Origin: Clostridia bacterium
Lineage (GTDB): Bacteria; Bacillota; Clostridia; Oscillospirales; CAG-272
DNA length: 64,000 bases
Assembly (NCBI GenBank): GCA_017621475.1
Contig: JAGATA010000039.1
Span: 30,108 to 94,107 of the forward strand
Reading direction: 5' to 3'
This document shows, in pieces, positions 46,673 through 62,004 of the stretch; the first letter of the stretch is position 1, and each line of letters starts with the position of its first letter. The notes beneath the pieces were generated by a model, which worked only from the letters and a program-made list of their open reading frames with translations, was not told where the DNA came from and searched no databases. Made by a program: the position numbers and the translations under genes.

Positions 46673-46692
46673 TTACGGCAAACTTAATATAT

Positions 46693-46770
<78 letters not shown>

Positions 46771-46800
46771 TCAAAGGGCGATAAAAAAGATATCGCCACA

Positions 46801-46828
46801 AAAAGCCTTGATTTTTCAAGGCTTTTTT
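46801..46828 (+). terminator. terminator after the tRNA pair
   Basis: AAGCCTTGA/TCAAGGCTT stem followed by a T-run. Confidence 0.6.
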
Positions 46829-46933
46829 CGTTTTTCAGAGCGAAATATCGAGATACAAAAATGGAGATATAAAATCGCTATTTCCCCACAGTTCAGGGAT
46901 TTGAACTCTGTCGGGGCAGAATATCAGCCACCC

Positions 46934-46974
46934 AAGGCACATGGAAAAGAAAAATCCGTGTGCCTTTTTCTTTT
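46934..46974 (+). terminator. terminator-like hairpin in the leader of the first element gene
   Basis: AAGGCACATGGA/TCCGTGTGCCTT stem followed by TTTTTCTTTT, about 30 nt before ATG 47006. Confidence 0.45.
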
Positions 46975-47005
46975 GCCAAAAATAAAAAATCAGGAGGAAA
47001 AATAC

Positions 47006-47659
47006 ATGAGCATTTACCAAGAAGAAATGATGCGAAAGCTCCCGAAGCTCGGATGCACAGGAACGCTCGATGAAGCCACAGGAACGCTGTCGATCAGGCA
47101 GAACGGCGTACTCCTCTGTCGGCAGCTTGTGGACGGAACACTTCTCTATACTGATGATAAGGTTACCTCGCAGAACTTCGGTGACACCTTCACGGCGATC
47201 AGCGACGAAGCCTATCGCATCCGTGAATACGTGAATCTATATGAGCGATCCCCCAAGATGCCAATTCCCGAGGTCAGCCAATACCGAAAGTTCTCCGAAT
47301 ACGGCGATACCGTCCTCGCCGGAGCGTATGGCAGTCACGGGTTTCTATTTTGCACGTGGAAACAGGCGCGAAATGGAACGTATGTGGCGCACGGAGATTA
47401 TACGCCCGACTTTGAACACGCCAAGGAATCCTTCATCACCCGATCACAGCTCATGGACAAAAACAGGATGTTCAGCGAGGATGAGGCAAGCCTGCTCTAT
47501 CGGTGCATCGCCTACGTAAGAGATAACTGCGAATCGCTGACCTACGAACAGGATCAGAAGCTCGACGGTCTGATCGAAAAGCTGACCTACGGCTACCAAA
47601 GCCTTGCAGATGAACAACCGTCCTTCGATCAGGACAACACCCCACAATTAAAAATGTAA
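47006..47659 (+). CDS. hypothetical protein (element cargo)
   Basis: 217 aa from ATG 47006 (AGGAGG RBS 9 nt upstream). The track ORF 46709.. reads through the tRNA gene. Confidence 0.6.
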   Translation: MSIYQEEMMRKLPKLGCTGTLDEATGTLSIRQNGVLLCRQLVDGTLLYTDDKVTSQNFGDTFTAISDEAYRIREYVNLYERSPKMPIPEVSQYRKFSEYGDTVLAGAYGSHGFLFCTWKQARNGTYVAHGDYTPDFEHAKESFITRSQLMDKNRMFSEDEASLLYRCIAYVRDNCESLTYEQDQKLDGLIEKLTYGYQSLADEQPSFDQDNTPQLKM

Positions 47660-47666
47660 ATCACCC

Positions 47667-47711
47667 AAGCCAATCGTTTACGGAGTACGCTCCCAAACGG
47701 TTGGCTTTTTT
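47667..47711 (+). terminator. terminator
   Basis: AAGCCAATCGTTT/AAACGGTTGGCTT stem followed by a T-run. Confidence 0.6.
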
Positions 47712-47737
47712 CATTTTAACGAAAAGGAGATCAAAAT

Positions 47738-48415
47738 ATGCTACTTACCATTACCTATATCGACCGAGAGCTTGAAAGGCTGATGACTCGCATCCCGAAC
47801 TTCCGTCCGAGAGGATACGGCGTATTCGTTTTTAATAAATTCGAGTACACCGCAAAGGACTGCGATTGCAGATACTGCCTGCATTGGCAGAAAGGAATCG
47901 GATGCACCGAGGGCAAATGCCCGTACATGAAGGAGCGCATCACCGCAGGCGCAGTACCGATCAAAGAAGCTCTGCTCGAAGCATTCTCCCCCGTGAACCA
48001 TTTTGCCTTTCAGTTGCGGCTCCGCCACCATATCAGAGAAAGCGAGGAAAACACCATGCAATTCAAAAATGATAAGCACAAAGAAGCCTTTACCGAGGCA
48101 GTCAGGAAGATGAACAAAAAGGACAACGCGCTTATGGCGGCGGTCTATCTCTTCACCGCAGACGGACGGCTGTGGAATCAAGTGAGCCGATACGTTGATC
48201 GATGCGAGATCGCATACGACCGTATCCGCATCAGCAACACCACCGAAGCTGGATATGCCTTGTTCTGCTGTGCCAAGGATCTCGCCATTGGAACAAAGCA
48301 CCTCACTATCAGCGACCTTGCCGACAGCAATCTCATTCCCCCGAAGCTCTTCGGTGTGATCTGCAACGCAATGGCGATCCGCCGATACGGTCTCGGCGCA
48401 ATTCAATTCAAATAA
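47738..48415 (+). CDS. hypothetical protein with an N-terminal Cys-rich (zinc-ribbon-like) segment
   Basis: 225 aa with CDCRYCLHWQKGIGCTEGKCPYMKER. AAGGAG RBS. Confidence 0.6.
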   Translation: MLLTITYIDRELERLMTRIPNFRPRGYGVFVFNKFEYTAKDCDCRYCLHWQKGIGCTEGKCPYMKERITAGAVPIKEALLEAFSPVNHFAFQLRLRHHIRESEENTMQFKNDKHKEAFTEAVRKMNKKDNALMAAVYLFTADGRLWNQVSRYVDRCEIAYDRIRISNTTEAGYALFCCAKDLAIGTKHLTISDLADSNLIPPKLFGVICNAMAIRRYGLGAIQFK

Positions 48416-48427
48416 GGAGAAGCAGCT

Positions 48428-48838
48428 ATGGACTATTTCGAACATGAAATGCAAATGTTTTTCGGAGAGTCAGCACTCTTGTCGGCTGACACCGTATTCT
48501 CGCATCGCGCAATGGTCAGCGATATCGGCAAGGATCTCCGTGCCAAGGTAGAGTTCATCAACACCAAGATCGCCTCCCAATACGATGCTTTGAAGCTGTC
48601 CATCATCAACCGCACAATGGGCGTGGTGGACACACAGACATTCAAGTTTTCGGATATCATCGGCAAAAAGAACGGAAGCGATCCGTACATCTGGGAAAAC
48701 GACGGTACTGCCAAATGGTACGGATACCGTCCGAATGCCCTTGAATTTGAGCAAATCCAAGGAAAGGTCGAGGAATATATAGAAATGTATGCCGACCAAG
48801 AATTGAGATATCAAGGCCATACGATGGGAGGGATGTAA
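48428..48838 (+). CDS. hypothetical protein
   Basis: 136 aa with an AAGGAG RBS. Confidence 0.6.
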   Translation: MDYFEHEMQMFFGESALLSADTVFSHRAMVSDIGKDLRAKVEFINTKIASQYDALKLSIINRTMGVVDTQTFKFSDIIGKKNGSDPYIWENDGTAKWYGYRPNALEFEQIQGKVEEYIEMYADQELRYQGHTMGGM

Positions 48839-48841
48839 TAT

Positions 48842-49180
48842 ATGGCTGTGCTTTTTTCTGCGGTTACCGTAACCGCAGGTGATCAGGAAAAGGAATTCCT
48901 CGTAAGAGGGATTCCGAGAGAGCTTGGTGACATTGAGGGATATACCGCATTTGAAGAATTCATGGAGGATATCGACGAGGAAACCGAGGTCAGCGTTCAC
49001 GCCGAAGCCTATCTCTACGGCGAGGGCGAAACCTATACGGCAACCCTTGAAGAACTCGCCTATTTTTATCTGCGCATAGAGATGCGCGAGGATTTCCTCT
49101 CTACCCGATGCGACAACATCGAGGATGTGGATTTTACCTTCGGATGGTCGCCCGATGAACTATTCGGCATGAAAATGTAG
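48842..49180 (+). CDS. hypothetical acidic protein
   Basis: 112 aa, rich in Glu/Asp. Confidence 0.55.
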   Translation: MAVLFSAVTVTAGDQEKEFLVRGIPRELGDIEGYTAFEEFMEDIDEETEVSVHAEAYLYGEGETYTATLEELAYFYLRIEMREDFLSTRCDNIEDVDFTFGWSPDELFGMKM

Positions 49181-49189
49181 GAGGTAAAT

Positions 49190-49330
49190 TTGGAGTATGA
49201 AATCATCATTCCCGACTCGCTGGTCGAGCAGCTTCTGATCGAAGCCGCCGAGCGAGAGGTCTCGGTCGAGGAAATCGTGACCGAAGCCATTCAAAAATTT
49301 ATAGAAAGGACTGAAAACATTGCCGACTAA
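49190..49330 (+). CDS. possible 46-aa ribbon-helix-helix protein (TTG start)
   Basis: Below the track's size cut-off. GTAGGAGGT RBS 5 nt upstream. The product (M)EYEIIIPDSLVEQLLIEAAEREVSVEEIVTEAIQKFIERTENIAD follows a beta-strand/helix/helix RHH pattern. Confidence 0.4.
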   Translation: MEYEIIIPDSLVEQLLIEAAEREVSVEEIVTEAIQKFIERTENIAD

Positions 49331-49847
49331 CGAAAAGAAAGGGATAACCGTCAAGATCGATGCAGAGCTTCATGCCGAGGTAAGGCAGTATTTGGAGCAG
49401 CACAGCATGACCATGGCAGACTTCGTCACGATGGCTCTGCAAGACGAGTTACATCCCAAAATTGAACAGAAAGAGGAAAAATCAATGGAAAAGATGCGTA
49501 CCTTGGCGTTTCAGGTACCGGAAGATCTGTTTCAAAAGATCAAGGATTACCTGCACCGCAACAATATGACACAGAGGCAGTTCGTCATCGGACTGATCGA
49601 AAACGAGATCGAGCGTGATCTCACCGAGCGACAGGCACAGACGGAGGCGCAAGAGCCGACCGAGGATCAGGACGAGGAAGAAACCGAGGAACTGACCGAA
49701 GATGCCGCAGAGGAAGAATATGAGGACGAGATCGAGGAATCGGAGGAAGAACTCGAAGATGAGGAATTGACCGAGGACGAGGAATCCGAGGAAGAAGAAC
49801 TCACCGAGGATGAGGAAGAAACCGAAGGAATGGTCATGAGAATGTGA
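49320..49847 (+). CDS. tandem RHH-like protein with a poly-acidic C-terminal tail
   Basis: Two RHH-like units (ITVKIDAELHAEVRQYLEQHSMTMADFVTMAL and LAFQVPEDLFQKIKDYLHRNNMTQRQFVIGLI), then about 65 residues that are almost all E/D/T with ELTED repeated three times. Confidence 0.6.
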   Translation: MPTNEKKGITVKIDAELHAEVRQYLEQHSMTMADFVTMALQDELHPKIEQKEEKSMEKMRTLAFQVPEDLFQKIKDYLHRNNMTQRQFVIGLIENEIERDLTERQAQTEAQEPTEDQDEEETEELTEDAAEEEYEDEIEESEEELEDEELTEDEESEEEELTEDEEETEGMVMRM

Positions 49848-49885
49848 GGTGATAAGACAATAACGGACGAAGGTCGTGATGCCCC

Positions 49886-51022
49886 ATGTCAAGACATGAG
49901 GCAATCCGATTTTTTGATATGTTTTCGGGGATCGGAGGATTCAGAAGCGGTCTTGAAGCTGTAGGCGGGTTTGAATGCATCGGTCATTGTGAGATCGACA
50001 GGCACGCCAACCAAGCATATAACGCAATCTATCAACCGAAAGGAGAATTTTACTGTGACGATGCACGAAAAATCAACCCCGAAACCATGCCCGACTTTGA
50101 CGTCCTCTGTGCCGGATTTCCTTGCCAAAGCTTCAGCGTTGCGGGAAAGCGGCTCGGATTCGACGATATGCGAGGCACTCTCATCTTTGAGGTTGCCCGA
50201 ATCATTGCAGCAAAACGGCCTGCATTTTTATTTTTGGAAAACGTCCCCGGCTTGCTATCGCATGACGGCGGCAGGACGCTTGATACCATCTTCTCCACGC
50301 TTGTTGAAATGGGGTATCATCTCGAATGGTGTGTGCATAACAGCAAACATTTCGGAGTCCCACAGCAACGGAGGCGATTGTATATTGTCGGATATCTTGA
50401 ACCAAGATGTGCCGGACAAATATTTCCTCTCGCCTGCGGCAATGCGCAAGCTCTCAAGCAACTTATCCCCGGACCGCAAGGACAGCGCGTCTACGAAACA
50501 GACGGAATAGCCTGCACCCAATGCGCGGGAGCAGGCGGTTGGGGCGGCAAGACAGGACTGTATTTTATAGACATGAATGTCAATCCCGTGATCACCGATC
50601 ACGCAAGGTGTATCACCGCCCGTCAGGATTCGGGCATCAGCAACCACCGAGGTGAACACTCGGCTGTGCTGATCGAGGACGAAGCTCCGAGAGCCATCCT
50701 CACTCCCGACCGAGAAACCGTCCGACAGCAAGGACGGCGCGTCAAAGAACCCGACGAGCCGATGTTCACCATCACAGCGCAAGACCGCCACGGCGTATGG
50801 CACAGAGGTCGCATCCGAAAGCTCATGCCCGTGGAATGTTGGCGGCTCCAAGGCTTTACGGACGAGCAGTTCCGCCGCGCCGAGGCGACAGGACTCAAGG
50901 ACGGACACCTATATAAAATGGCGGGCAATGCGGTCAGCGTTCCCGTCATTTCTGCTATAGGTAGAAAAATCCTTGCCTTCAACGAACAATATCAAATCAT
51001 AAAAGGAAGTGATGACCGATGA
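49886..51022 (+). CDS. dcm: DNA (cytosine-5)-methyltransferase
   Basis: Motifs I FSGIGG, IV GFPCQSFS, VI ENV, VIII QRRR and X GNAVSVPV. Confidence 0.9.
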   Translation: MSRHEAIRFFDMFSGIGGFRSGLEAVGGFECIGHCEIDRHANQAYNAIYQPKGEFYCDDARKINPETMPDFDVLCAGFPCQSFSVAGKRLGFDDMRGTLIFEVARIIAAKRPAFLFLENVPGLLSHDGGRTLDTIFSTLVEMGYHLEWCVHNSKHFGVPQQRRRLYIVGYLEPRCAGQIFPLACGNAQALKQLIPGPQGQRVYETDGIACTQCAGAGGWGGKTGLYFIDMNVNPVITDHARCITARQDSGISNHRGEHSAVLIEDEAPRAILTPDRETVRQQGRRVKEPDEPMFTITAQDRHGVWHRGRIRKLMPVECWRLQGFTDEQFRRAEATGLKDGHLYKMAGNAVSVPVISAIGRKILAFNEQYQIIKGSDDR

Positions 51023-51735
51023 ATGTAAAGGAGCGCATTGAAGCGTTCAACGAAGAAAACCGACCGTTTTATATCGTAGATCACGATGATGGGAAGTTCA
51101 GCCTCTGCCTCCCGCTTGGTTTCATCAGCGGCGAATATGAGGACTTCGGACAAAAAGCATTTGATGCCTACGCCTTGGAGATTGGAGAGCCGCCCGTCGA
51201 CAGCCGAGGATTTCAAACCCACGGCAACGGCTATGAATGGGAGGCGGCATTTTGCCAAGCCTTCGAGGGCGATCCCAACCTCCGCCGTTTTGCCTTTGAC
51301 TGCGAATCAAGCGGATTTTTTATGGATTGCGATGACCTCTCCCTGCTCGAAGAATACGGCGCGAGGTTCAGAGAGATCTGCATGGACACGGAGAGGTTTA
51401 CGACCATTGTCTCCCAAGGCATCAAACGCATGGATCAATGGCTTGCGGAGCAAGAGAAGCTGGCGAATACCGTCCGTGGCGCACTCCTTGAAAACCCAAG
51501 CTCCACCTTTGACATTATGACACCCGACGGCAATATCCGTATCACACCACAGGACACAAAGCAGCTACTCGATGGGGATATGCAATTCGTCCATATCGGC
51601 GGCGCTCAATACTGTGCCTTTGAGCTGCTCGATCAGGAGATCGCCCAAAAGCAGACCGATCTGTTCGACGAGGATCTCATCCGCATGAAAACCCAAGAAC
51701 CCGAACAGGAGCTTGGCTTCAAAATGACGATGTAA
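51019..51735 (+). CDS. hypothetical acidic protein, translationally coupled to dcm
   Basis: 238 aa. ATGA overlap with the dcm stop. No family recognised. Confidence 0.6.
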   Translation: MNVKERIEAFNEENRPFYIVDHDDGKFSLCLPLGFISGEYEDFGQKAFDAYALEIGEPPVDSRGFQTHGNGYEWEAAFCQAFEGDPNLRRFAFDCESSGFFMDCDDLSLLEEYGARFREICMDTERFTTIVSQGIKRMDQWLAEQEKLANTVRGALLENPSSTFDIMTPDGNIRITPQDTKQLLDGDMQFVHIGGAQYCAFELLDQEIAQKQTDLFDEDLIRMKTQEPEQELGFKMTM

Positions 51736-51748
51736 GGAGGTGATTCCC

Positions 51749-53020
51749 GTGGCAAAAACAATCAAGATAGAACTCGCAAAGGAGAATCCCCAAGGCGTTG
51801 GATGGTTTTATGGTTACGTGGAACTGCCTGCCGAGGAACATGAGATTCGGGATGCCTATCAGAAAGCAAGGATCACAGATAATGATAATGCCTATCACGA
51901 CATCGCCATCCTCGATTGTCCGCGTCTGCCCGAACTCACGCAGATCAGGATCGACGGCGCGACCATCGACGAGCTGAACTTCCTTGCCAAACGGCTCGAC
52001 TCGCTGACCGACGAGGAATGCGATATCCTCGAAGCGGTTGCTCCCAAAATCATTCATGGAGATGAGGAAGAACTCGTCAGCATGAAAGACCTCATCAACC
52101 TTACCTACGGACTCGATGTGTCGGTGCTTTCAAATGTCGGCAACGATATCGAGCTTGGAAAGTTTGTGATTGAAAACGATCTTCATGAGGACGTGGCGGC
52201 GATCCCCGAACAGTCCTTATATCTGATCGATCCCGCCGCAGTCGGAAGGCTTCAGCGAGGCTTGGATGACGGCGTATATGTCAATGGTAAATATATCCTT
52301 GCAGGCGAATATGAACACCCAAAGGTATATGACGGTCAGCAGCTCCCGCAGAGCGACGTGTCCACTTGGTACGCTTTCCGTTTGGAGGTCACCTATCCGC
52401 CTATCTATGAGGATGACGAGCTGAACTCCAAGACGGTATGGCTCTCGCTCCCCGCAACCGAGGATGAGATCAAAGCGGTTACCGACGAACTCAGCATGAG
52501 CGATATCCGAAGCTGTGTATATTACGCCTTTGAATCCTCCGTCCCGCAGATCGAATCCGATCACTTCGGGGATATGCAGGACTTCGACTCGCTCAACAGC
52601 CTTGCGGAGATGATGGTAGAGATGACACCCGCCGATCAGGTCAAATTCAAAGCGGTACTCTCCGCCGAAGAACCATCCAAGATCGAGGATATCCTCGACA
52701 TCGCAAGAAATCTGCATCAATATGAGCATTCGTATATGGTGGACGATTCCTCGGACTTTTTCAGAGAATATATACTCCGCCACATGGACTCCCGCCTCGA
52801 CAGCCATTGGTTCGATACGCTCCTCACAAGAAACGAGGGCGACCGACTGCTCACACGGCTCGGAGCAACAGAAACCGATTACGGTGTTATCTCTGCCCGT
52901 GGGCGTTCTCTTTATGAGCTTGTCCCCTATGAGGAACAGCAGACCGAACAAGCGCAGACCGAGGATCAGGACGAGGACTTGGAGCAAGACCGAGGCATCC
53001 AACGCCTCACGATGAAATAA
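51749..53020 (+). CDS. large acidic protein, two ArdA-like (antirestriction) repeats suspected
   Basis: GTG 51749 sits 8 nt after AGGAGG; the track start is 51740. By-eye alignment to Tn916 ArdA in both halves: GWFYGYVELP..IDELNFLAKRLDSLTDEE in the first, and LSLPATEDEIKAV..LNSLAEMMVEMTPAD in the second. Confidence 0.5.
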   Translation: MAKTIKIELAKENPQGVGWFYGYVELPAEEHEIRDAYQKARITDNDNAYHDIAILDCPRLPELTQIRIDGATIDELNFLAKRLDSLTDEECDILEAVAPKIIHGDEEELVSMKDLINLTYGLDVSVLSNVGNDIELGKFVIENDLHEDVAAIPEQSLYLIDPAAVGRLQRGLDDGVYVNGKYILAGEYEHPKVYDGQQLPQSDVSTWYAFRLEVTYPPIYEDDELNSKTVWLSLPATEDEIKAVTDELSMSDIRSCVYYAFESSVPQIESDHFGDMQDFDSLNSLAEMMVEMTPADQVKFKAVLSAEEPSKIEDILDIARNLHQYEHSYMVDDSSDFFREYILRHMDSRLDSHWFDTLLTRNEGDRLLTRLGATETDYGVISARGRSLYELVPYEEQQTEQAQTEDQDEDLEQDRGIQRLTMK

Positions 53021-53043
53021 CCGACAGAAAGGAAAAAAACAAT

Positions 53044-53190
53044 ATGGCAACACTACTTTGGTTTCTCGCCGGACTCTTGATCGGCGGGTGCATCGGCACG
53101 GTTGTCCTCTGCTGTGTGCAGATCAACCGAGCCAATCACTATGAGCGCGAAATCCGACAGCTCCGCAACCAACTCCATCAGCGTAAGTAA
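53044..53190 (+). CDS. possible 48-aa single-TM protein
   Basis: MATLLWFLAGLLIGGCIGTVVLCCVQINRANHYEREIRQLRNQLHQRK. Below the track's size cut-off. Confidence 0.35.
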   Translation: MATLLWFLAGLLIGGCIGTVVLCCVQINRANHYEREIRQLRNQLHQRK

Positions 53191-53194
53191 CCCA

Positions 53195-53238
53195 AGACGG
53201 TATCAATCGCCCCGAAACGATTGATACCGTCTTTTTTT
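53195..53238 (+). terminator. strong rho-independent terminator
   Basis: 15-bp stem AGACGGTATCAATCG/CGATTGATACCGTCT followed by T7. Confidence 0.75.
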
Positions 53239-53272
53239 GTTTCGGGAGCGATGGATACCCCACGAAAGTGAG

Positions 53273-54259
53273 GTGATCACCATTAAAACCCCCGTTTCAA
53301 GGGTGGGCAACAAATCCTCGATCCTCCATATCCTCTATGCGGTGTTTCCACCGAAATACGGCAGATTTATCGACGTGTTCGGTGGCTCGGGCAGCGTACT
53401 GCTCGGTAAGCCGGAGATACATCCCTTTGAGGTGTATAACGATTTTGATCGCAACCTCGTCAATCTGTTCCGATGCATGAAGGAGAGGACGATGGCGACG
53501 ATCCGAGAGATCGGCTTCTGCAACCTCAACTCCCGTGAGGACTTCATAGCCATAAAGAGATTTTTTGAGCATGAAGCTTTTGACGATAAGTATATGAACG
53601 AGGAACTGCAGCTAACTGAGATACTGTTCCCACCGCCCGAAGCCAAGGAGCTTGCGGAGATACGCAGGCGTATCACCGAGAATCACGACGTGCGCCGTGC
53701 CGCGATGTTCCTCAAATTGCTCCGCTACAGCTATTCAAGCGGATGCAAATCCTTTGCCTCACAGCCCTGCGACATCCGCAGGCTGTTCGCTCTCATCCGA
53801 GAACTCGAAGATCGCATGGCAAACGTAGTGATCGAGAATCAGGACTTTGAAACCCTCATCAAGCACTACGACCGCCCCGATGCCTTCTTTTATGCCGATC
53901 CGCCCTACTACTCCACAGAGGATATGTATGCGGTAGGCTTCGGATGGGAGGATCACGTGCGCCTGCGGGATACGCTTGCAGGCATCAAAGGAAAGTTTCT
54001 CTTGTCCTATAACGACTGTCCCGAAATCCGTCAGCTTTACGAGGGCTTCTCGTTTTTCGATTTTTCAAGAGCGCATTCGATGGCACAGCGTTATGAGGCA
54101 GGCAAGGAATTCAAGGAGCTTCTCATAGCCAACTACGATCTGTATGAGAGAGAGCGAGAAAAGCCGAAGCAGCTCACGCTGTTCAGCGAAGTGGACAATG
54201 AATTCAACTACGAAAAAGTATTAAAGGAGTGTATTATTTCATGCAAAATCCGAAATTGA
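53273..54259 (+). CDS. N6-adenine DNA methyltransferase (Dam/D12 class)
   Basis: VGNKSS (GGK-like), DVFGGSGSV (motif I) and FFYADPPYY (DPPY). The track start 53237 lies inside the terminator, so GTG 53273 is preferred. The start remains uncertain. Confidence 0.85.
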   Translation: MITIKTPVSRVGNKSSILHILYAVFPPKYGRFIDVFGGSGSVLLGKPEIHPFEVYNDFDRNLVNLFRCMKERTMATIREIGFCNLNSREDFIAIKRFFEHEAFDDKYMNEELQLTEILFPPPEAKELAEIRRRITENHDVRRAAMFLKLLRYSYSSGCKSFASQPCDIRRLFALIRELEDRMANVVIENQDFETLIKHYDRPDAFFYADPPYYSTEDMYAVGFGWEDHVRLRDTLAGIKGKFLLSYNDCPEIRQLYEGFSFFDFSRAHSMAQRYEAGKEFKELLIANYDLYEREREKPKQLTLFSEVDNEFNYEKVLKECIISCKIRN

Positions 54260-54459
54260 GCATTGACTGCGTTCTGCTTTCCGTCCCCGTGGAGCTGTTC
54301 GTCGAAGCAGGCATCACGGACGGCGATCTCGTGCAGCTCACGGCAGAAGAAGGAAGAATCGTCATCACAGCCGAACCCGACACAACCAACTATGTATGCG
54401 ACGGCATCTGCGAGGATTGCCCGATCAATGAAGAATGCGAAGAAAGCGAGGTGCTTTGA
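54241..54459 (+). CDS. AbrB/MazE/SpoVT-like small protein with a Cys-rich acidic tail
   Basis: SVPVELFVEAGITDGDLVQLTAEEGRIVI swapped-hairpin pattern, with C-terminus CDGICEDCPINEECEE. Confidence 0.55.
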   Translation: MQNPKLSIDCVLLSVPVELFVEAGITDGDLVQLTAEEGRIVITAEPDTTNYVCDGICEDCPINEECEESEVL

Positions 54460-54462
54460 TAT

Positions 54463-54762
54463 ATGGCCAAATTACTCCGAATCCTCGGTAAGAGAGGAAG
54501 AATCACCATCCCCTATGAGATCAGACAGAAGGTAGGCTTCGCCTATAACGACGTGCTGTCCTTCACCGAGGGCAGCGACGGCAGAACTGTCATCGTCCGC
54601 AGAGAGCGCATCTGCGACTGTGAAAAGGCAAAACCCGTAAAAAAGGACGATGAGGTCACCCTCCTCGATTTCCTCAATGGTCTCTCTCCCGAACAGCAAA
54701 GAGCCGCGCTTGTGCATCTGTCCGTGATGTGGGCAGAAAAACAGGGCGGTTTTTTTGTATAA
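54463..54762 (+). CDS. AbrB/SpoVT-domain protein
   Basis: GKRGRITIPYEIRQKVGFAYNDVLSF. Confidence 0.65.
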   Translation: MAKLLRILGKRGRITIPYEIRQKVGFAYNDVLSFTEGSDGRTVIVRRERICDCEKAKPVKKDDEVTLLDFLNGLSPEQQRAALVHLSVMWAEKQGGFFV

Positions 54763-54875
54763 AAGCATACCGAAAAAGCGAGGTGATGATAAATATGGCG
54801 CGATGCTCCCGTCCCGAATCCAAGCTAAGAACGGAGGTAACACAGCATGAACAGAAAGAGATGGAGAGGCGCATG

Positions 54876-55214
54876 ATGAAGAAAGTATATATCTGTGCGC
54901 CCCTCGGAGGCAATGTCAGCGAGAACCTCGAACTCGTCAAGACCTATACCGAATATGCCCTCAAGTGCGGAACGGCTCCTGTCGTCCCGCATTTTTACGC
55001 TCTCTGCCTCGATGACAGTATCGAAAAGGAGCGCGAGATCGGCATGGCGGCAGGGCTGAGCCTTTTGTGGTTCTGCGACGAAATGTGGATCTTCGGGGAT
55101 GAGGTGACCGAAGGTATGCAGGCAGAAATCCGCTTCTGCCAAAACCTCAATATCAAAATGAAGAAAATCCGCTACCACGAAATCAACAAAAAGATCGGAG
55201 GAAAAAGAATATGA
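54876..55214 (+). CDS. DUF4406-like (nucleoside deoxyribosyltransferase-fold) protein
   Basis: MKKVYICAPLGG...PHFY...DEMWIFG pattern. ATG 54876 lies 6 nt after GGAGAGG. Upstream in-frame starts (54795, 54861) remain possible. Confidence 0.6.
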   Translation: MKKVYICAPLGGNVSENLELVKTYTEYALKCGTAPVVPHFYALCLDDSIEKEREIGMAAGLSLLWFCDEMWIFGDEVTEGMQAEIRFCQNLNIKMKKIRYHEINKKIGGKRI

Positions 55215-55573
55215 ATAAGATCATGAAGAACAAGAAGCTCGCAAAGCTCCTCATCTGCGTGGCAATGGTCGCGCTCCTCGTTTCCATCATGTCGGTTTCC
55301 GCTTTCGCCGCGACTCCCACGGGTGACGTTGCCGGAGCCGTCGAGGACACATGGAACTCTGCCAAGGGGCAGATCAAGCAGGTGACCAACAATGTCATCT
55401 TTCCCATTGTGGACTTGATCCTTGCCATCCTTCTGTTCGTGAAGCTCGGTACGGCATACTTTGATTATCGCAAGCACGGTCAGTTTGAATTCACCGCACC
55501 TGCCATTTTGTTCGCCTGCCTTGTGTTCACGCTCACCGCACCCCTTTATATTTGGAACATCATCGGCATCTGA
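55211..55573 (+). CDS. VirB2/TrbC-like small T4SS membrane protein
   Basis: 120 aa with a signal peptide (..MSVSAFAA) and two hydrophobic helices, lying directly upstream of the VirB6-like gene. Confidence 0.55.
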   Translation: MNKIMKNKKLAKLLICVAMVALLVSIMSVSAFAATPTGDVAGAVEDTWNSAKGQIKQVTNNVIFPIVDLILAILLFVKLGTAYFDYRKHGQFEFTAPAILFACLVFTLTAPLYIWNIIGI

Positions 55574-55600
55574 TGACCGAACACACAGAGAAATATCAAG

Positions 55601-55624
55601 CCGCAGGCGGTTCGCCGCCTGCGG
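55601..55624 (+). promoter_or_regulatory. intra-operon RNA stem-loop (10-bp GC stem, UUCG loop), no T-run
   Basis: CCGCAGGCGG-TTCG-CCGCCTGCGG. Confidence 0.6.
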
Positions 55625-55643
55625 AGAACGGAGGTAAAACGAA

Positions 55644-56576
55644 ATGTTTGATTGGCTTCAAGATCTGATCGACGGGATCACCGATGCCATAGCAAACGCC
55701 TTCAGCGGGATAGGTCAGCAGATCTCAAACACGATATGGAACACGATGATGAAATGGTTTTACGAAACCATATACGGCGCGGTTGCCGACTTCTTTACGA
55801 TGATGGGCAACATGGGCGCGGAGATATTCGACCTCAAATGGGTGCAAGCCACCGTCCATCTGTTTACGCTCTTCGGATGGGCGTTGTTTATCGCAGGCGT
55901 TGTCGTTGCCATCTTCGACGTGGCAATTGAATATCAAAGCGGCAGAGCGAATATCAAAAATACCGTTCTCAATATTCTCAAGGGATTTTTTGCGTGTTCG
56001 CTGATCGGCGTTGTTCCCATAGAGCTATATCGTTTCTGCATCTCTCTGCAAAACACCTTCTCCCATGACCTCTCAAGGCTGTTTGCAAACGGTCAGTCGG
56101 TGGACATTGCCGACATGAGCCTGCGTGTGCTGACAGGAGGATTCCAAGGTGCGGCGACACAGTCAAGCCTGCTCAATATTCTTGTGCTGATTGCATTTGC
56201 GTACTGCGTGGTCAAGATATTTTTCCAAAATATCAAGCGCGGAGGCATTCTGCTCGTGCAGATGTCGGTGGGAGCGTTGTATATGTTCTCCGTACCGAGA
56301 GGATATACGGACGGCTTCGTGCAATGGATGAAGCAAGTGGCAGCGATCTGCCTCACGGCATTTATGCAGACAACCCTATTGTTCCTCGGACTCATCACCT
56401 TCCCCGGAAATATGCTCCTCGGACTCGGCATTATGCTTGCGGCTAACGAAGTGCCTCGCATTGCACAGCAGTTCGGACTCGATTCCTCGGTCAAGGTCAA
56501 TATGATGAGCGTTGTTCACGCAACCACCACGGCGGTCAATCTGACTCGCTCTGTGGCAAAAATTGCGGGCAGATAA
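55644..56576 (+). CDS. VirB6/TrbL-like polytopic T4SS protein
   Basis: 310 aa with at least 5 TM helices, in the T4SS operon position. Confidence 0.6.
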   Translation: MFDWLQDLIDGITDAIANAFSGIGQQISNTIWNTMMKWFYETIYGAVADFFTMMGNMGAEIFDLKWVQATVHLFTLFGWALFIAGVVVAIFDVAIEYQSGRANIKNTVLNILKGFFACSLIGVVPIELYRFCISLQNTFSHDLSRLFANGQSVDIADMSLRVLTGGFQGAATQSSLLNILVLIAFAYCVVKIFFQNIKRGGILLVQMSVGALYMFSVPRGYTDGFVQWMKQVAAICLTAFMQTTLLFLGLITFPGNMLLGLGIMLAANEVPRIAQQFGLDSSVKVNMMSVVHATTTAVNLTRSVAKIAGR

Positions 56577-56587
56577 GGAGGCAAGCT

Positions 56588-56848
56588 ATGACAAGATTTT
56601 TGTACCCGCAGAACCTCAAGGCCAAGGCAAATATGTGGCTTTGGGGAATGCGGGATTTTATTATTCTCGCCATCGGCGCACTGCTCTCGGTAGTGGCGGC
56701 GGTGGAGCTTGGATGGCTGATTCCCGGAGCAGCAACCCTCTGCTTCGGATTCCTCACCATCCGCAAGGATGATATGACCATCCTTGACTTTATCAAATAC
56801 GCCGTGCGGTACTTCATATCCGCACAGCAATATTACGAATGGAGGTGA
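56588..56848 (+). CDS. PrgI/VirB3-like small T4SS membrane protein
   Basis: 86 aa with 2 TM helices, immediately before VirB4. Confidence 0.6.
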   Translation: MTRFLYPQNLKAKANMWLWGMRDFIILAIGALLSVVAAVELGWLIPGAATLCFGFLTIRKDDMTILDFIKYAVRYFISAQQYYEWR

Positions 56849-56854
56849 CCGACT

Positions 56855-57469
56855 GTGGCAAAGAAGAAAACGCAGTCAAAAACTGCCCCGCAGACAAAGA
56901 AAAAAGGCGCGTCGGTGCAGGATCTCATCGGCATCAAGACCTTCACCGATTACGGCATCGTCACAAACCGTGGCGAGCTGTTATATTACCTCGTAACCCC
57001 CACCAACATCTCGGTGCTGTCGGCGGCGAATATTGAGAATAAGATTAGGCAACTCAAACTCGTCCTCTCCACCGAAACCGACATTGAGATCACCGTCACC
57101 GACTCCTCGGAGTGCTTCGATGACAACAAGCTCTACCTCATGGACAGGATCGAGCAAGAGCCGAATCTCAAGGTCAGGAGCCTGCTCGAAAAGGACATCA
57201 CCTTCCTCGATGCGGTGCAGATGGAGATGTCGACGGCGCGACAGTTTATCTTTACGGCACGATGCCGTAACCTCAAGCCGTCTCAGGTGTTCAAGAGAGC
57301 CAACGAGATCGAAAAGACCATCTCCGAGCAGGGCTTCGAGGTTCACCGTATGAAAAAACAAGAGATCAAGAGATTCCTCGCTCTGTATTTTGAGGCATCC
57401 ATGCAGGGCGAGCTGATGTCGGATGCCGACGGCATTCAGTATCTCGACGAAGAAGGAGGCGATGCGTAA
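56855..57469 (+). CDS. VirB4 N-terminal-domain-like protein (separate ORF)
   Basis: 204 aa. SVQDLIGIKTFTDYGIVTNRGELLYYLVTPTNISVLS resembles the N-terminus of single-chain Gram-positive VirB4 ATPases. TAATG overlap with the next ORF. Confidence 0.6.
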   Translation: MAKKKTQSKTAPQTKKKGASVQDLIGIKTFTDYGIVTNRGELLYYLVTPTNISVLSAANIENKIRQLKLVLSTETDIEITVTDSSECFDDNKLYLMDRIEQEPNLKVRSLLEKDITFLDAVQMEMSTARQFIFTARCRNLKPSQVFKRANEIEKTISEQGFEVHRMKKQEIKRFLALYFEASMQGELMSDADGIQYLDEEGGDA

Positions 57470-59301: not shown

Positions 59302-59846
59302 TGGCGGCACCCGCCCTCATACCGATCATCAAAAAGGTTGCGACCTATATTGCGACCAACCCCAAAGCACTCAAAAAGGTGGTCGGGATCGTGATCGGAG
59401 TGGTGGTGATTATCGCCATGCCGATCATTGCGCTCCTCGGAATTTTTACGGGAGGTGTGGATCTCAATATAGACCGATTGCAAGAGATGATCGTGGAGAA
59501 CCAATCCTCGGCATCTGGCGTGATGACCGAGATCGAGGAAAAGATGCTGTCCGCAGGATATAGCCATCTGAATGTCAAGGAGGCGCAGGCGATTTATTCG
59601 CTTGCGCTCTTCACCCGTGGCTCGGAGGAAGGATTTACGGATACGCTCGTCGGATGCTTCTCGGAAGGACAGAGTGATGAGGATCTCATCGCAAAGGTCA
59701 ATGCAGCCTTCGGTACGAACATCCTCGCTTCGGATTTTACCTCTGCCGTGCGGAAAATGCGCGATGAGCATATCGAACCCGAACCGCCTCCCGAAGAAAC
59801 AGAGCTGCCCGACACAAATGAAACGGAGGTGACCACAGCACCATGA
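59301..59846 (+). CDS. membrane-anchored T4SS-associated protein, no hydrolase domain seen
   Basis: 181 aa with a TM helix (VVGIVIGVVVIIAMPIIALLGIF) and a Pro/Glu-rich tail. TAATG coupling. Confidence 0.5.
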   Translation: MAAPALIPIIKKVATYIATNPKALKKVVGIVIGVVVIIAMPIIALLGIFTGGVDLNIDRLQEMIVENQSSASGVMTEIEEKMLSAGYSHLNVKEAQAIYSLALFTRGSEEGFTDTLVGCFSEGQSDEDLIAKVNAAFGTNILASDFTSAVRKMRDEHIEPEPPPEETELPDTNETEVTTAP

Positions 59847-60949: not shown

Positions 60950-60961
60950 GGAGTGATCACT

Positions 60962-61228
60962 ATGAAGAAAACAACCATCAGCGTGTCCTTCGAGGACGAG
61001 AAGCTCTCCGCGCTCAAGATGTATCTTGAACAGCGTGGGCAGACGGTCGAGGGCGAACTCGAAAAGGCTCTCGACACTCTCTACGCCAAGACCGTGCCTG
61101 CGGGTGTTCGTGAGTTCCTCGATCTGCGTTCAGGAGTCGTGCCGACTCCTCCCAAGGCGAAGAAGCCGAAACCTCCCACAGCCTCTGCCGAGAGTAATTC
61201 CGACGAGAACAAGGGCGCGGATCAGTAA
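60962..61228 (+). CDS. small conserved ICE protein with a Lys/Pro-rich tail
   Basis: MKKTTISVSFEDEKLSALKMYLEQRG... AAGGAG RBS 8 nt upstream. Confidence 0.55.
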   Translation: MKKTTISVSFEDEKLSALKMYLEQRGQTVEGELEKALDTLYAKTVPAGVREFLDLRSGVVPTPPKAKKPKPPTASAESNSDENKGADQ

Positions 61229-61591
61229 CCGCCCGTGAGCCACCGTGTCGCCCCGTGTGGCGATTTGGAGGACGAGGTCGGGCAAACACCCAAGAGAGGC
61301 AAAACGAGCGCAAATGAGGCGATTTGCGAGAGGTACGGAGAGAGCGAAAATCGGGCAGTATTACGCTGTCCGATTGGATTGCAGGAATAAGCGCAGGGGT
61401 TGCAAAGCACCCTCTGCGCCTCTCACAGCAGACGGCAATGCCGACTGCACAAGGACTTTTTACGCCTCAACGCCAAGGGGTTGCAAATCGCCCGTTTTTA
61501 CGGTCAAGGAGTCACGAAATACGAAAGCGTAAGCGTGGCGTGGCATTATGCGGGGGTTGTACCCGTAAATACGGCAGAAAGGAGAAAAAAC
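61229..61591 (+). promoter_or_regulatory. candidate oriT / relaxosome promoter region
   Basis: 363-bp non-coding gap upstream of the RHH-relaxase pair, with several inverted and direct repeats (see findings). Confidence 0.4.
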
Positions 61592-61999: not shown

Positions 62000-62004
62000 T
62001 ACCG

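Follow-up and report, generated by a model that had tools for sequence, protein, structure and literature searches.

A gut Clostridia bacterium is the host of an ICE of the MOBL type (~22 kb) that adjoins a tRNA-Met gene, and the left end of this element, at positions 47006 to 55214 of the 64,000-nucleotide stretch of DNA analyzed (the window), raises the question of what its 14 genes do for the element. The first-pass annotation had proposed an anti-defense island with new functions among its unassigned genes. We consider it likely, though far from certain, that the block is an accessory establishment and anti-restriction module of the ICE acting through the mechanism proposed below. The GC content rises from 0.40 to 0.50 directly past the tRNA gene, and the block is foreign DNA; the same tRNA-Met is the break point of a contig from a second sample. 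The setting of the element is gut or rumen. The order along the ICE is tRNA-Met, island, minimal T4SS, oriT, MobL relaxase, T4CP, and tyrosine integrase. The gene content first described for the island was borne out, with all 14 genes in the same orientation. The features are as follows.

46692 to 46769, plus strand: tRNA-Met (ARAGORN and Rfam); the element starts immediately downstream (left junction)
46934 to 46972, plus strand: terminator-like hairpin and U tract before g1 (-18.6 kcal/mol, z -4.0)
47006 to 47659, plus strand: g1, 217-aa acidic protein, pI 4.8, C terminus ...PQLKM
47667 to 47712, plus strand: terminator-like hairpin and U tract after g1 (-23.2 kcal/mol, z -4.5)
47738 to 48415, plus strand: g2, 225-aa basic protein, pI 9.1
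48428 to 48838, plus strand: g3, 136-aa acidic protein, C terminus ...GHTMGGM
48842 to 49180, plus strand: g4, 112-aa very acidic protein, pI 4.05, 25% D+E, C terminus ...LFGMKM
49190 to 49330, plus strand: g5, 46-aa RHH-like protein
49320 to 49847, plus strand: g6, 175-aa tandem RHH protein with poly-acidic tail, C terminus ...EGMVMRM
49886 to 51022, plus strand: g7, C5-cytosine DNA methyltransferase without a nuclease partner
51019 to 51735, plus strand: g8, 238-aa acidic protein, pI 4.3, C terminus ...LGFKMTM
51749 to 53020, plus strand: g9, 423-aa protein built from two ArdA-like halves homologous to each other, C terminus ...RLTMK
53044 to 53190, plus strand: g10, 48-aa membrane peptide, DUF3789-like
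53194 to 53240, plus strand: perfect 16-bp hairpin and U tract after g10 (-24.9 kcal/mol, z -7.0)
53273 to 54259, plus strand: g11, D12-class N6-adenine DNA methyltransferase without a nuclease partner
54241 to 54459, plus strand: g12, 72-aa acidic protein with a Cys-rich end, weakly AbrB-like
54463 to 54762, plus strand: g13, AbrB/MazE-type DNA-binding protein (PF04014, E = 6.5e-6, exceeding the cutoff)
54795 to 55214, plus strand: g14, DUF7768, nucleoside 2-deoxyribosyltransferase-like (PF24963, E = 1e-31; phrog_355, E = 1e-16)
55211 to 61228, plus strand: T4SS genes (DUF3852, TrbL_5, 86-aa ORF, VirB4-like in two ORFs, 181-aa ORF, t7, DUF6103)
59843 to 60949, plus strand: t7, acidic pentapeptide protein within the T4SS genes
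61229 to 61591, no strand: candidate oriT, noncoding, before an accessory gene and the MobL relaxase
From 61592, plus strand: t9, 135-aa accessory gene product, between the candidate oriT and the relaxase
From 62005 past the window end at 64000, plus strand: MobL-family relaxase (tblastn to MobP3/MobL relaxases)
Past the window end (walk along the contig): Toprim, T4CP, HTH, DUF6809, and tyrosine integrase

Gene content of the island

Both methyltransferases had been reported without an endonuclease, and this was confirmed. The g7 protein (PF00145, E = 1e-77; TIGR00675, E = 2e-84) matches M.HhaI over the catalytic part only (E = 3e-52), its PADLOC matches being confined to methyltransferase models; g11 matches PF02086 (E = 1e-23) and DpnM-like chains (E = 1e-11); and no nuclease or PADLOC restriction model matched any island ORF. 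On record g11 has 328 residues, with a shorter 255-residue call on one contig, and the starts on record in identical contigs are 51749 (g9), 53273 (g11), 54241 (g12), and 54795 (g14). The two ArdA-like halves described for one acidic protein were also found in g9 (pI 4.3, net charge -53), which matches ArdA PF07275 in two stretches (E = 1.3e-10; 42.6 bits versus a Pfam cutoff of 27) and whose halves are homologous to one another (hhalign 98.4%, E = 5e-15). A PDB sequence search with g9 gave nothing at E ≤ 1, and the protein is only remotely ArdA-like.

The g8 protein, encoded by a gene that overlaps g7 by 4 nt, combines an Imm51-like N-terminal domain with a beta-rich C-terminal domain. Its relatives belong to PF15595 and carry the NCBI name "immunity 51 family protein," and its conserved residues W74 and D94-x-E96 correspond to the published Imm51 signature of W and Dx[DE] (PMC3482391). 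The AlphaFold model of g8 is confident (pLDDT 90.6), and Foldseek found no match to its fold in the PDB. The match of g10 to PF12664 (E = 2e-4) falls slightly under the cutoff; g10 was missing from the first-pass gene list.

Four proteins had been described as unassignable, which holds for g1 (no match in Pfam, NCBIfam, PHROG, PADLOC, or PDB), for g3 and g4 (no match in Pfam, NCBIfam, PHROG, or PADLOC), and for g2, whose sole match in Pfam, NCBIfam, PHROG, and PADLOC is a subthreshold one to DUF6075, with none above threshold in PDB or Pfam. Homologs of g1 are present in 9 related loci, and none of the more than 220 relatives of g2 or the ~300 relatives of g4 is named. An alignment of g2 with its relatives displays an N-terminal PNFRPRG motif, a cluster of Cys residues that varies, and a C-terminal domain that is conserved; g2 is probably a regulator or DNA binder, a simpler reading than anti-defense. 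The AlphaFold model of g4 is confident (pLDDT 83.6), and Foldseek found nothing similar in PDB or BFVD. The profile, structure, and Foldseek comparisons suggested at first pass gave no anti-defense match for the unassigned genes: none resembles a known anti-defense protein in sequence, and the modeled g4 and g8 match none in fold, so that an anti-defense role for these genes is one that we infer.

The tiny RHH protein was recovered weakly as g5 (RHH_1, E = 0.009; Arc-like PHROG, E = 2e-4) and the tandem RHH protein as g6, which matches the repressor phrog_876 (E = 1e-9) and has a 68-residue tail with 60% D+E. A small RHH-like ORF directly followed by a g6 homolog is kept as a pair in a Massiliimalia relative (L031). 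Relatives of g6 form 679 representative clusters, among which 44 acidic-tailed representatives have tails of 34 to 285 aa, with a terminal Met in 36. Two AbrB-type proteins had been proposed; g13 stands, and g12, with no match in Pfam, aligns weakly with an AbrB neighbor family (c7; hhalign 50%). For the RHH and AbrB proteins, a regulatory role is the simpler reading. The DUF4406 fold assigned to g14 was replaced by DUF7768. The g14 family lies directly 5' of the t1/t2 genes in L013, L026, L036, L046, L064, and L077 and keeps its synteny with the T4SS genes wherever relatives carry them, so that g14 is part of the transfer operon. The first-pass interpretation is supported in part, among other things by the ArdA-like protein, the methyltransferases without a nuclease, and the patterns considered next.

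Palindrome avoidance and gene shuffling

Restriction-type palindromes are strongly avoided across the element. GGCC occurs 10 times versus 83.5 expected, CCGG 23 times versus 122, CTAG 0 times versus 8.5, and CGATCG 0 times versus 16, with GATC and GCGC at expectation. This avoidance shows that the element is under real selection from restriction. Across 78 related loci, the families of g8, g9, g2, g4, and g11 recur together, with an order that differs between loci. The commonest neighbor of g8 relatives is g2 (27 loci), followed by ArdA-like (23), Dam-like (23), and dcm (12) genes, and phage contigs are nearly free of the g8 family (1 locus). Slots are replaced in syntenic islands, g3 by another ArdA-like family and g5/g6 by DUF4314. 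In L032, L033, L036, L072, L077, and L080, t9 and the relaxase have relatives of g8, g9, or g4 as neighbors, and in several relatives island families lie directly beside the putative oriT on its leading side. Co-recurrence, shuffled order, and placement beside oriT are the behavior of accessory anti-defense genes. The anti-restriction reading is thus supported by homology, palindrome avoidance, and family shuffling in the 78 loci.

Evasion would be passive through the avoided sites and active through methyltransferases that would modify the element's own DNA, through DNA mimicry by which the ArdA-like protein would block Type I enzymes, and through the Imm51-like and small acidic proteins, which may counter other effectors (nucleases or NADases).

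A shared C-terminal tail

The g1, g3, g4, g6, g8, and g9 proteins end in an acidic stretch and a GMxM-like tip, of the form G-[MFL]-x-M-x-M or MGGM. With the tail defined by 2 or more Met among the 7 C-terminal residues, 129 of 1,411 ORFs were positive versus 15 of 1,411 at an internal control window, as were 14 of 81 neighbor families versus 0 of 81; the tail was found in 0 of 47 host ORFs. It marks at least 10 unrelated protein families in related elements. Taken per family, C termini were positive for g1 (Met-terminal in 6 of 7 distinct C termini), g3 (Met within the last 4 residues in 5 of 5), g4 (likewise in 88% of relatives), g8 (85% Met-terminal), and g9 (Met in the last 4 residues in 11 of 12 distinct C termini) and negative for g2, which itself has no Met tail, and for g7, g11, g13, g14, and the T4SS proteins. 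Overlap with a Shine-Dalgarno sequence (26% versus 22% in controls) does not explain the motif, nor do the stop codon, the Gly codons used, or the spacing to the following gene; the tail is a protein-level feature without a nucleotide-context explanation. The C termini are disordered in both AlphaFold models (g4 and g8). Through the tail, the unassigned g1, g3, and g4 are linked more closely to the ArdA-like and Imm51-like proteins than through adjacency.

The tail would single out the acidic proteins for a shared step of handling, most likely docking to the coupling protein, with timed proteolysis as the alternative. Docking would mean that the acidic proteins are delivered as proteins along with the DNA, and there is precedent for leading-region proteins that pass through the T4SS of a conjugative system (PMC8406263, PMC11288057). 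The relaxase of this ICE ends in ...KQAHGLRL, without Met, and its relatives end in ...QGQKMG, so that a connection of the tail with T4SS substrates is no more than suggestive. Lachnospiraceae elements contain some of the tail-bearing families, with Tad/Flp-like neighbors instead of this T4SS.

Proposed transfer polarity and timing

The candidate oriT is kept in L032, L033, and L036, where compensatory changes preserve its hairpin, a conservation that supports an oriT at 61229 to 61591. In pLS20, a distant MOBL plasmid, oriT likewise lies upstream of accessory genes and the relaxase, which nicks the template strand (PMC5313138). A similar nick at ~61.4 kb, on the template (minus) strand, would bring the T4SS genes in first and the island 6 to 14 kb later. 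By this analogy the island, which is not adjacent to the candidate oriT here, would enter after ~6 kb of T4SS genes; the question raised at first pass of which end enters first would thus be answered against a leading island, with ~6.2 kb preceding it.

Timing may be set by repression through the RHH (g5/g6) and AbrB (g12/g13) proteins, which fit an arrangement like the zygotic-induction scheme of p576; an RHH repressor has precedent (PMC8708921). Three internal terminators, each preceded by ACCCAAG (at 46934, 47667, and 53194), imply possible read-through control, the second ending 26 nt before the g2 start. Neither a sigma-70-like or single-stranded DNA promoter nor a repeated operator was found inside the island.

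Alternative readings

The tail might instead be a degradation tag, with a burst of acidic proteins produced upon entry or induction and then cleared by a cellular protease, without protein transfer. Such removal would keep anti-defense activity transient, as is expected of establishment functions (PMC8708921). The tails are disordered with nonpolar end residues, and their presence alongside apparently different transfer genes is more in keeping with a host-wide reader than with a single coupling protein. Absence of the tail from the 47 host ORFs and the long acidic run ahead of the tip, which known degrons lack, nevertheless make a degradation tag unlikely, and to our knowledge the tip is unlike the C-degrons described in bacteria, ssrA-type LAA among them. 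The tail also bears on whether g8, possibly along with other small acidic proteins, is orphan immunity cargo that would protect the host from contact-dependent toxins of neighbors, as an acquired interbacterial defense, rather than an inhibitor of anti-MGE defense. The Imm51 family was defined in polymorphic toxin loci as conferring immunity against the Tox-RES and Tox-URI1 toxins (PMC3482391), and both the W and DxE signature kept in g8 and the gut or rumen setting agree with such a role. It is decidedly improbable, however, in view of the tail common to g8 and ArdA-like proteins and of g8 relatives that lie within T4SS operons (between two VirB4-like ORFs) or adjacent to oriT, beside ArdA and methyltransferases and not beside toxins or poly-immunity arrays.

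A block devoted mainly to regulation and maintenance, made up of repressors or antitoxins, g2, and epigenetic methyltransferases with the acidic proteins as the regulators' partners and not as inhibitors, would account for the DNA-binding-type proteins among 4 or 5 of the 14 genes, for g14 in the T4SS operon, and for terminators without downstream promoters, which point to an elaborate control of transcription; AbrB/MazE and RHH are folds common among antitoxins. It is clearly unlikely, as no toxin partner was detected in the island, the ArdA match of g9 exceeds the Pfam cutoff, palindrome avoidance shows that restriction acts as a selective pressure, and the families behave as independent mobile cassettes, oriT-adjacent in relatives, which is not typical of core regulators. 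It is common for restriction nucleases to show no recognizable homology, and the g7/g8 overlap could hint that the methyltransferases belong to complete restriction-modification systems with nucleases too divergent to recognize (g8, for example), forming a defense or addiction module. That is scarcely credible for a very acidic, Imm51-like g8 whose confident model matches no nuclease fold and which lacks a dcm neighbor in 44 of 56 loci, with PADLOC restriction matches absent.

Probable role in establishment

On the preferred reading, as an establishment and anti-restriction module, the island encodes proteins that probably shield the element from the restriction enzymes of a new host. The shared tail is a new result, a feature without a described function that may serve as a signal for recruitment to the T4SS or as a degron.

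Layout and boundaries of the element

The GC content rises from about 0.40 to 0.50 directly after a tRNA-Leu/tRNA-Met pair (tRNA-Met, 46692-46769), and all credible genes from this jump to the end of the window lie on the + strand. Exact-protein look-ups identified the window as part of an 87.9-kb metagenome scaffold, which made it possible to walk past position 64000. The element is an ICE of about 22 kb with the following parts.

Parts of the ICE from left to right
47006-55214, +, island with genes g1 to g14, left portion of the ICE
Right of the island, +, minimal T4SS: DUF3852, TrbL_5, an 86-aa ORF, a VirB4-like ATPase (2 ORFs), a 181-aa ORF, a pentapeptide-repeat protein, and DUF6103
61229-61591, noncoding gap of ~364 bp between the T4SS genes and t9, candidate oriT
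Right of the gap, +, t9 (135-aa ORF) and a 721-aa MobL relaxase
Right of the relaxase, DUF3991/Toprim protein, VirD4-type coupling protein (656 aa), HTH_36, and DUF6809
Right end of the element, tyrosine integrase, 279 aa, after which the GC content drops

Relatives of the ICE occur in Oscillospiraceae, Ruminococcus, Lachnospiraceae, and other Clostridia genomes of gut and rumen origin. A direct repeat of the 3' end of tRNA-Met was not found near the integrase, so that the right junction is placed by the GC drop only. The gene for a 1916-aa nonribosomal peptide synthetase, which is either cargo or host DNA, begins ~300 bp past the integrase (19481-21107 of L006, the locus used for the part beyond the window end; about window 69.3 kb onward). 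A megablast search of the island against PLSDB plasmids gave no match, and tblastn searches of plasmids with g8, g6, and g9 gave nothing or unannotated Subdoligranulum and Vescimonas records only.

The two ORFs of the VirB4-like ATPase encode 204 aa and 610 aa (56855-59301). A frameshift was considered as the cause of this split and rejected; in four relatives (L010, L012, L013, and L046), a homolog of the Imm51-like g8 gene sits between both ORFs, and the split is therefore a family trait and not a sequencing frameshift. The pentapeptide-repeat protein t7 (59843-60949), encoded in the T4SS operon, has 368 aa with the repeats at its C-terminal side, a pI of 4.24, a net charge of -47, and the terminus NLKM. 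Since Qnr, MfpA, and other pentapeptide-repeat proteins of this kind act as DNA mimics, t7 is a further DNA-mimic candidate outside the island. A GC-rich 10-bp hairpin without a U tract (55601-55624) separates TrbL_5 from the pilin-like DUF3852 gene; it may serve as an attenuator or stabilize the RNA after the most highly expressed gene.

Gene content of the island

Searches of Pfam, NCBIfam, PHROGs, and PADLOC recovered 14 genes at 47006-55214, as the first-pass annotation had described them from the sequence alone, with minor corrections.

Genes of the island
g1, 47006-47659, +, no match in Pfam, NCBIfam, PHROGs, or PADLOC
g2, 47738-48415, +, DUF6075 below threshold only
g3, 48428-48838, +, no match in Pfam, NCBIfam, PHROGs, or PADLOC
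g4, 48842-49180, +, no match in Pfam, NCBIfam, PHROGs, or PADLOC
g5, 49190-49330, +, weak RHH
g6, 49320-49847, +, tandem RHH; phrog_876 repressor, E = 1e-9; 68-residue tail, 60% D+E
g7, 49886-51022, +, C5 methyltransferase; PF00145, E = 1e-77; TIGR00675, E = 2e-84
g8, 51019-51735, +, Imm51-like, pI 4.3
g9, 51749-53020, +, ArdA above the Pfam cutoff; two homologous halves
g10, 53044-53190, +, DUF3789-like membrane peptide, 48 aa
g11, 53273-54259, +, D12 N6A methyltransferase; PF02086, E = 1e-23
g12, 54241-54459, +, weakly AbrB-like
g13, 54463-54762, +, AbrB/MazE
g14, 54795-55214, +, DUF7768, nucleoside 2-deoxyribosyltransferase-like

The tandem RHH protein with a poly-acidic tail was confirmed as g6. 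The protein that had been assigned a DUF4406 fold, g14, is instead a DUF7768 protein, and of the two proposed AbrB-type proteins g13 is a clear AbrB/MazE member and g12 is weakly AbrB-like. Two 37-nt stretches that are 73% alike (54431-54467 and 54763-54799) each span a ribosome binding site and a gene start, the first that of g13 and the second that of g14 in its 139-aa version, and they support the g14 start at 54795.

No relatives of g1 or g2 were detected among solved structures or Pfam families, and sequence and profile searches of the PDB with g1, g2, g4, g8, and g9 gave chance-level matches only. The basic g2 protein, in which a PGFRPRG-like motif is conserved and a Cys cluster varies, has more the look of a nucleic-acid-binding protein or a regulator. 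The g4 family comprises ~300 relatives of 112 to 114 aa with many invariant residues. Structure prediction and Foldseek searches, which the first-pass annotation had suggested for the island, were run on g4 and g8 and gave confident AlphaFold models (pLDDT values of 83.6 and 90.6, respectively) and no structural match: there was nothing with an E value below 0.03, and no consistent fold, in PDB and BFVD for g4 or in PDB for g8. These are two widespread families with confident models that lack structural relatives in PDB (both) and BFVD (g4).

A C-terminal tail shared by unrelated proteins

The feature of the locus that is of most interest and lends itself best to testing is a C-terminal tail, consisting of an acidic run followed by a Met-rich tip, that is carried by g1, g3, g4, g6, g8, g9, and t7, which are unrelated proteins and are all acidic.

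C-terminal residues of the tailed island proteins
g1, PQLKM
g3, HTMGGM
g4, LFGMKM
g6, GMVMRM
g8, GFKMTM
g9, RLTMK

A scan of one genome per species yielded 78 loci with g8 relatives. In these, at least two Met residues occur among the last seven residues of 129 of 1411 ORFs, compared with 15 of 1411 at an internal control window, and 14 of 81 families with at least three members have the motif in at least 40% of their members (control window, 0 of 81). None of the 47 host ORFs in the window has two or more Met among its last seven residues. The tailed families include three ArdA-like families and the Imm51-like, DUF4314, DUF3849-like, g4, and RHH-acidic families as well as several of no assigned function, and the SpoVG-like and YodL families have Met-containing tips too; about 10 independent tailed groups are left once families related by hhalign are merged.

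The tail is conserved across divergent homologs. In the g8 family, 85% of members end in Met, and Met is present among the last four residues of five of five distinct g3 termini and 11 of 12 distinct g9 termini. Homologs of g6 form 679 representative clusters in which a hypervariable poly-acidic tail extends the tandem RHH; in the 44 acidic-tailed representatives this tail has 34 to 285 aa (median, 99) with 44% D+E, the tips include GFSMGM, GFAMRM, and GMSMGM, and the final residue is Met in 36. The tail was absent from the homolog C termini of g2, g7, g11, g13, g14, and the T4SS proteins. It is disordered, with low pLDDT, in both AlphaFold models (g4 and g8), and no description of it was found in the literature searched.

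Overlap of the tail codons with the Shine-Dalgarno sequence or start codon of the following gene was considered as the origin of the tail and rejected. Shine-Dalgarno-like words in the last 15 nt are no more frequent than in controls (26% versus 22%); the tailed genes use each of the three stop codons and each of the four Gly codons; and in half of the cases there is no start codon within 30 nt, with downstream contexts that vary and include some terminators.

By this common mark, g1, g3, g4, and g8 belong with the ArdA-like and RHH-acidic proteins in one sequence-defined class. The unknowns could not be assigned by homology, nor, for g4 and g8, by fold.

ArdA-like and Imm51-like proteins

ArdA is a DNA mimic that blocks Type I restriction-modification and has an elongated three-domain fold whose dimer mimics B-DNA (PDB 2W82). 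The g9 protein matches PF07275 in two stretches at 42.6 bits (cutoff, 27; E = 1.3e-10), and its halves are homologous to each other (hhalign, 98.4%, E = 5e-15), in agreement with the two ArdA-like halves recognized in the first reading. The whole protein is strongly acidic (pI 4.28, net charge -53, 21% D+E), and a phmmer search of PDB sequences gave nothing at E <= 1. Like the ArdA proteins of Tn916 (Orf18) and of IncI/IncN plasmids, g9 has a Pfam match above the cutoff and a very low pI and is encoded on a conjugative element; unlike those proteins of about 166 aa, it is a 423-aa fusion of two diverged ArdA-like units, has a Met-rich C-terminal tip, and lacks a PDB sequence match. Relatives hold several more ArdA-like paralogs (families c18 and c30).

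The window copy of g8 scores 24.3 bits against PF15595, under the Pfam cutoff of 29.8; most of its relatives carry PF15595, and one is named "immunity 51 family protein" by NCBI. W74 and D94 are invariant in the family and E96 is nearly invariant, so that g8 keeps the published Imm51 signature of W and Dx[DE] (PMC3482391). In the AlphaFold model, an alpha+beta Imm51-like N-terminal domain is connected by a helical linker to a beta-rich C-terminal domain. The g8 family resembles Imm51 of polymorphic toxin systems (PF15595; PMC3482391) in its PF15595 matches and retained signature and differs in its additional beta-rich domain and Met tail and in its T4SS/anti-restriction contexts, not beside toxins. 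Neither a polymorphic toxin (Tox-RES or Tox-URI1) nor a poly-immunity locus was found beside the family, whose neighbors are ArdA-like genes, methyltransferases, T4SS genes, and recombinases, and the family is nearly absent from 2.9 million viral contigs, where it was found at one locus. The possibility that g8 is the missing restriction nuclease of the dcm gene (g7) was considered and rejected.

The Imm51-like domain of g8 also resembles the C-terminal subdomain of the g9 ArdA-like repeat (51019-51735 versus 51749-52393; hhalign, 95.3%, range 90 to 95%, E = 2e-8). This is a lead only, because the aligned identity is 11% and no ArdA entry is among the Foldseek matches to PDB listed for the g8 model (best E, 0.13). 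If the link is real, Imm51 and ArdA domains would be of common ancestry.

Methyltransferases and restriction pressure

The first-pass annotation had reported a C5-cytosine and an N6-adenine methyltransferase without an endonuclease, and this arrangement holds: g7 and g11 each contain a complete catalytic methyltransferase domain, and Pfam and PADLOC searches found no restriction nuclease partner or restriction model for any island ORF, within the limit that a strongly diverged nuclease could escape detection. The target-recognition parts of g7 and g11 do not align to solved enzymes, and M.HhaI aligns to the catalytic half of g7 only. Palindromes were counted in the 22.2-kb element (46800-64000 plus L006 to the integrase) relative to a maximal-order Markov expectation.

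Palindrome counts in the element
GGCC, 10 observed, 83.5 expected (0.12 of expectation)
CCGG, 23 observed, 122 expected (0.19 of expectation)
CTAG, 0 observed, 8.5 expected
ACGT, 28 observed, 61 expected
CGATCG, 0 observed, 16 expected
CTCGAG, 0 observed, 11 expected
GAGCTC, 1 observed, 13.8 expected
GATC, 166 observed, 171 expected (at expectation)
GCGC, 90 observed, 90 expected (at expectation)

This depletion shows selection by restriction enzymes. The host portion of the window has another pattern, with CATG at 0.27 and GATC at 0.62 of expectation. The counts of GATC and GCGC, the two 4-nt palindromes that escape depletion, would fit a role of the DpnM-like and HhaI-like methyltransferases of the element in protecting GATC-like and GCGC-like sites, without being proof of it.

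The island as a shuffled module

Comparative evidence from the sequences of relatives indicates that the island is an accessory, shuffled module. The most frequent neighbors in the 78 loci are members of the g2 family (27 loci), ArdA-like g9 (23), Dam-like g11 (23), dcm g7 (12), g1 (9), and g4 (9). In syntenic islands, slots are filled by other families, with the ArdA-like family c18 in the place of g3 and DUF4314 in that of g5/g6. Besides their position between the two VirB4-like ORFs, g8 relatives are found between t7 and the DUF6103 gene t8 or directly before t9 and the relaxase, and ArdA-like and g4 relatives adjoin the putative oriT in two loci (L077 and L080). The g14 gene always accompanies the transfer genes t1/t2 (DUF3852/TrbL_5) and is best counted in the transfer operon.

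In eight Lachnospiraceae relatives (L040, L041, L042, L051, L060-L062, and L076), equivalent islands, which hold the g8 N-terminal domain, g2, two ArdA-like genes, a Dam-like gene, and AbrB, adjoin RcpC/CpaB-like and TadZ/ParA-like genes. These neighbors are machinery of the Tad/Flp-pilus type and not the T4SS of this ICE.

Transfer polarity and regulation

The relaxase falls in the MobL/MobP3 group. The founding member of the group is RelLS20 of pLS20, which acts on an oriT placed immediately before two accessory genes and the gene for the relaxase (PMC5313138). The ICE has the same layout, with the gap at 61229-61591 ahead of t9 and the relaxase gene. This gap is conserved in L032, L033, and L036. 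It contains a hairpin, AATCGGGCAG/CTGTCCGATT, whose pairing is kept by compensatory changes in relatives, followed by a conserved TTGCAGGAATAAG and then by a second, imperfect inverted repeat, GCGCAGGGGTTGC/GCACCCTCTGCGC. These features and the analogy to pLS20 make the gap a likely oriT. A pLS20-type nick in the template strand would make the minus strand the T-strand, moving 5' to 3' leftwards, and the T-strand would be the template for every island gene. The T4SS genes would enter first, the island next, at 6.2 to 14.4 kb from nic, and the relaxase last. As to which end enters first, a point raised in the first reading, the analogy places the island on the leading side and, with the T4SS genes between it and the candidate oriT, not at the leading edge. 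Relatives have members of the island families right at the putative oriT.

Three strong terminator-like hairpins with U tracts (z of -4 to -7) are located before g1 (46934-46972), after g1 (47667-47712), and after g10 (53194-53240); each is directly preceded by the heptamer ACCCAAG, and three units in the island result. Because g2 and g11 start 26 to 33 nt past a terminator, which leaves no promoter room, and a sigma-70 scan found no sigma-70-like promoter inside the island, expression is probably achieved by upstream read-through, which could come from across the circular junction after excision. An Rfam search returned two tRNAs only. The arrangement suggests regulated read-through or antitermination in one long operon. 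By analogy with the RHH repressor Reg576 of p576, which gives zygotic induction of establishment genes (PMC8708921), the RHH (g5/g6) and AbrB (g12/g13) proteins would be the obvious candidates for control. A repeat search and a promoter scan found no counterpart of the p576 arrangement, in which repeated operators flank strong promoters upstream of each establishment operon.

Comparison with known establishment regions

The locus resembles the leading-region anti-defense islands described by Samuel et al. (2024; PMC11541004) in its clustering of ArdA-type genes, orphan methyltransferases, and many unknowns, in its location on the side of the candidate oriT opposite the relaxase, in a gene content that differs among relatives, and in an orientation that, by analogy, would let the T-strand serve as template. 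Unlike those islands, it is part of an ICE from Clostridia whose relaxase is of the MOBL type, T4SS genes of ~6 kb stand between it and the candidate oriT, and its proteins share a C-terminal tail; no SSB, PsiB, anti-CRISPR, or Frpo-like ssDNA promoter was seen, with promoters covered by the sigma-70 scan and Rfam. The pLS20/p576 regulons (PMC8708921 and PMC5313138) share with it a MobL-type relaxase, an oriT that precedes an accessory gene and the relaxase gene, the grouping of an anti-restriction gene with other establishment genes, and RHH proteins, in line with zygotic induction of the Reg576 type. In contrast, the anti-restriction gene is ArdA-like here and ArdC there, the RHH protein of this island is a tandem form extended by a long poly-acidic stretch, and neither EGeRS-like repeats nor repeated operators were found; the transferred strand of pLS20 is the non-template strand for establishment genes, whereas here it would be the template.

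The interpretation of 47006-55214 as an anti-defense island is thus partly supported: it holds as an anti-restriction/establishment module of a Clostridia ICE, with unknowns that homology does not assign. Anti-defense islands are established for Proteobacterial plasmids and Bacillus pLS20-like plasmids, and hardly any description exists for the ICEs that abound in gut Clostridia. The locus is such an island in a compact MOBL-type ICE, and the tail offers a practical means of enumerating its members, as it marks ArdA-like proteins along with at least 10 unrelated unannotated families.

Possible functions of the tail

The tail looks like a targeting signal in being short, disordered, and located at the extreme C terminus of unrelated proteins from one kind of mobile element. 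C-terminal T4SS signals include the Dot/Icm E-block and the Arg-rich tails of VirB/D4 substrates, and Dot/Icm signals are acidic with a hydrophobic residue near the end. The tail is like the known signals (F/pED208, Dot/Icm, and VirB/D4) in being short, disordered, and C-terminal, and to our knowledge its motif, G-Phi-x-M-x-M or MGGM, is unlike every described T4SS signal. It is proposed, tentatively and with more doubt than confidence, that the coupling protein of Clostridia ICEs recruits its protein substrates by the acidic run with G-[FML]-x-M-x-M or MGGM. A set of anti-defense and establishment proteins (ArdA-like, Imm51-like, RHH-acidic, DUF4314, YodL, DUF3849, SpoVG-like, and several unknowns) would then be injected into the recipient alongside the DNA, and protein delivery would offset the late entry of the island. 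Conjugative T4SSs do deliver leading-region and maintenance proteins to recipients (F/pED208; PMC8406263 and PMC11288057), and the experimental evidence on substrate recruitment in Gram-positive systems is limited according to a 2025 review (PMC12857230). Several relatives have relaxases that end in QAQGQKMG or KQAMGLRD; as a link between the tail and T4SS substrates these ends are only suggestive, since the relaxase of this ICE ends in KKQAHGLRL, without Met.

The main rival to a recruitment signal is a degradation tag that keeps the proteins transient, which is an unlikely explanation, and the tail may also be a docking tip for some other partner. The remaining probability falls to another common function or to none.

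Should the tail prove to be a T4SS signal, no protein-translocation signal would have been defined before it for a conjugative T4SS of Gram-positive bacteria; Gram-positive elements would then be seen to pre-load recipients with anti-defense proteins, and the tail would provide a sequence handle for finding new ones. If it is a degron, it would explain the transience of establishment functions. Either way, the tail makes of the "unknown genes next to ArdA" a class that is defined by sequence and can be tested.
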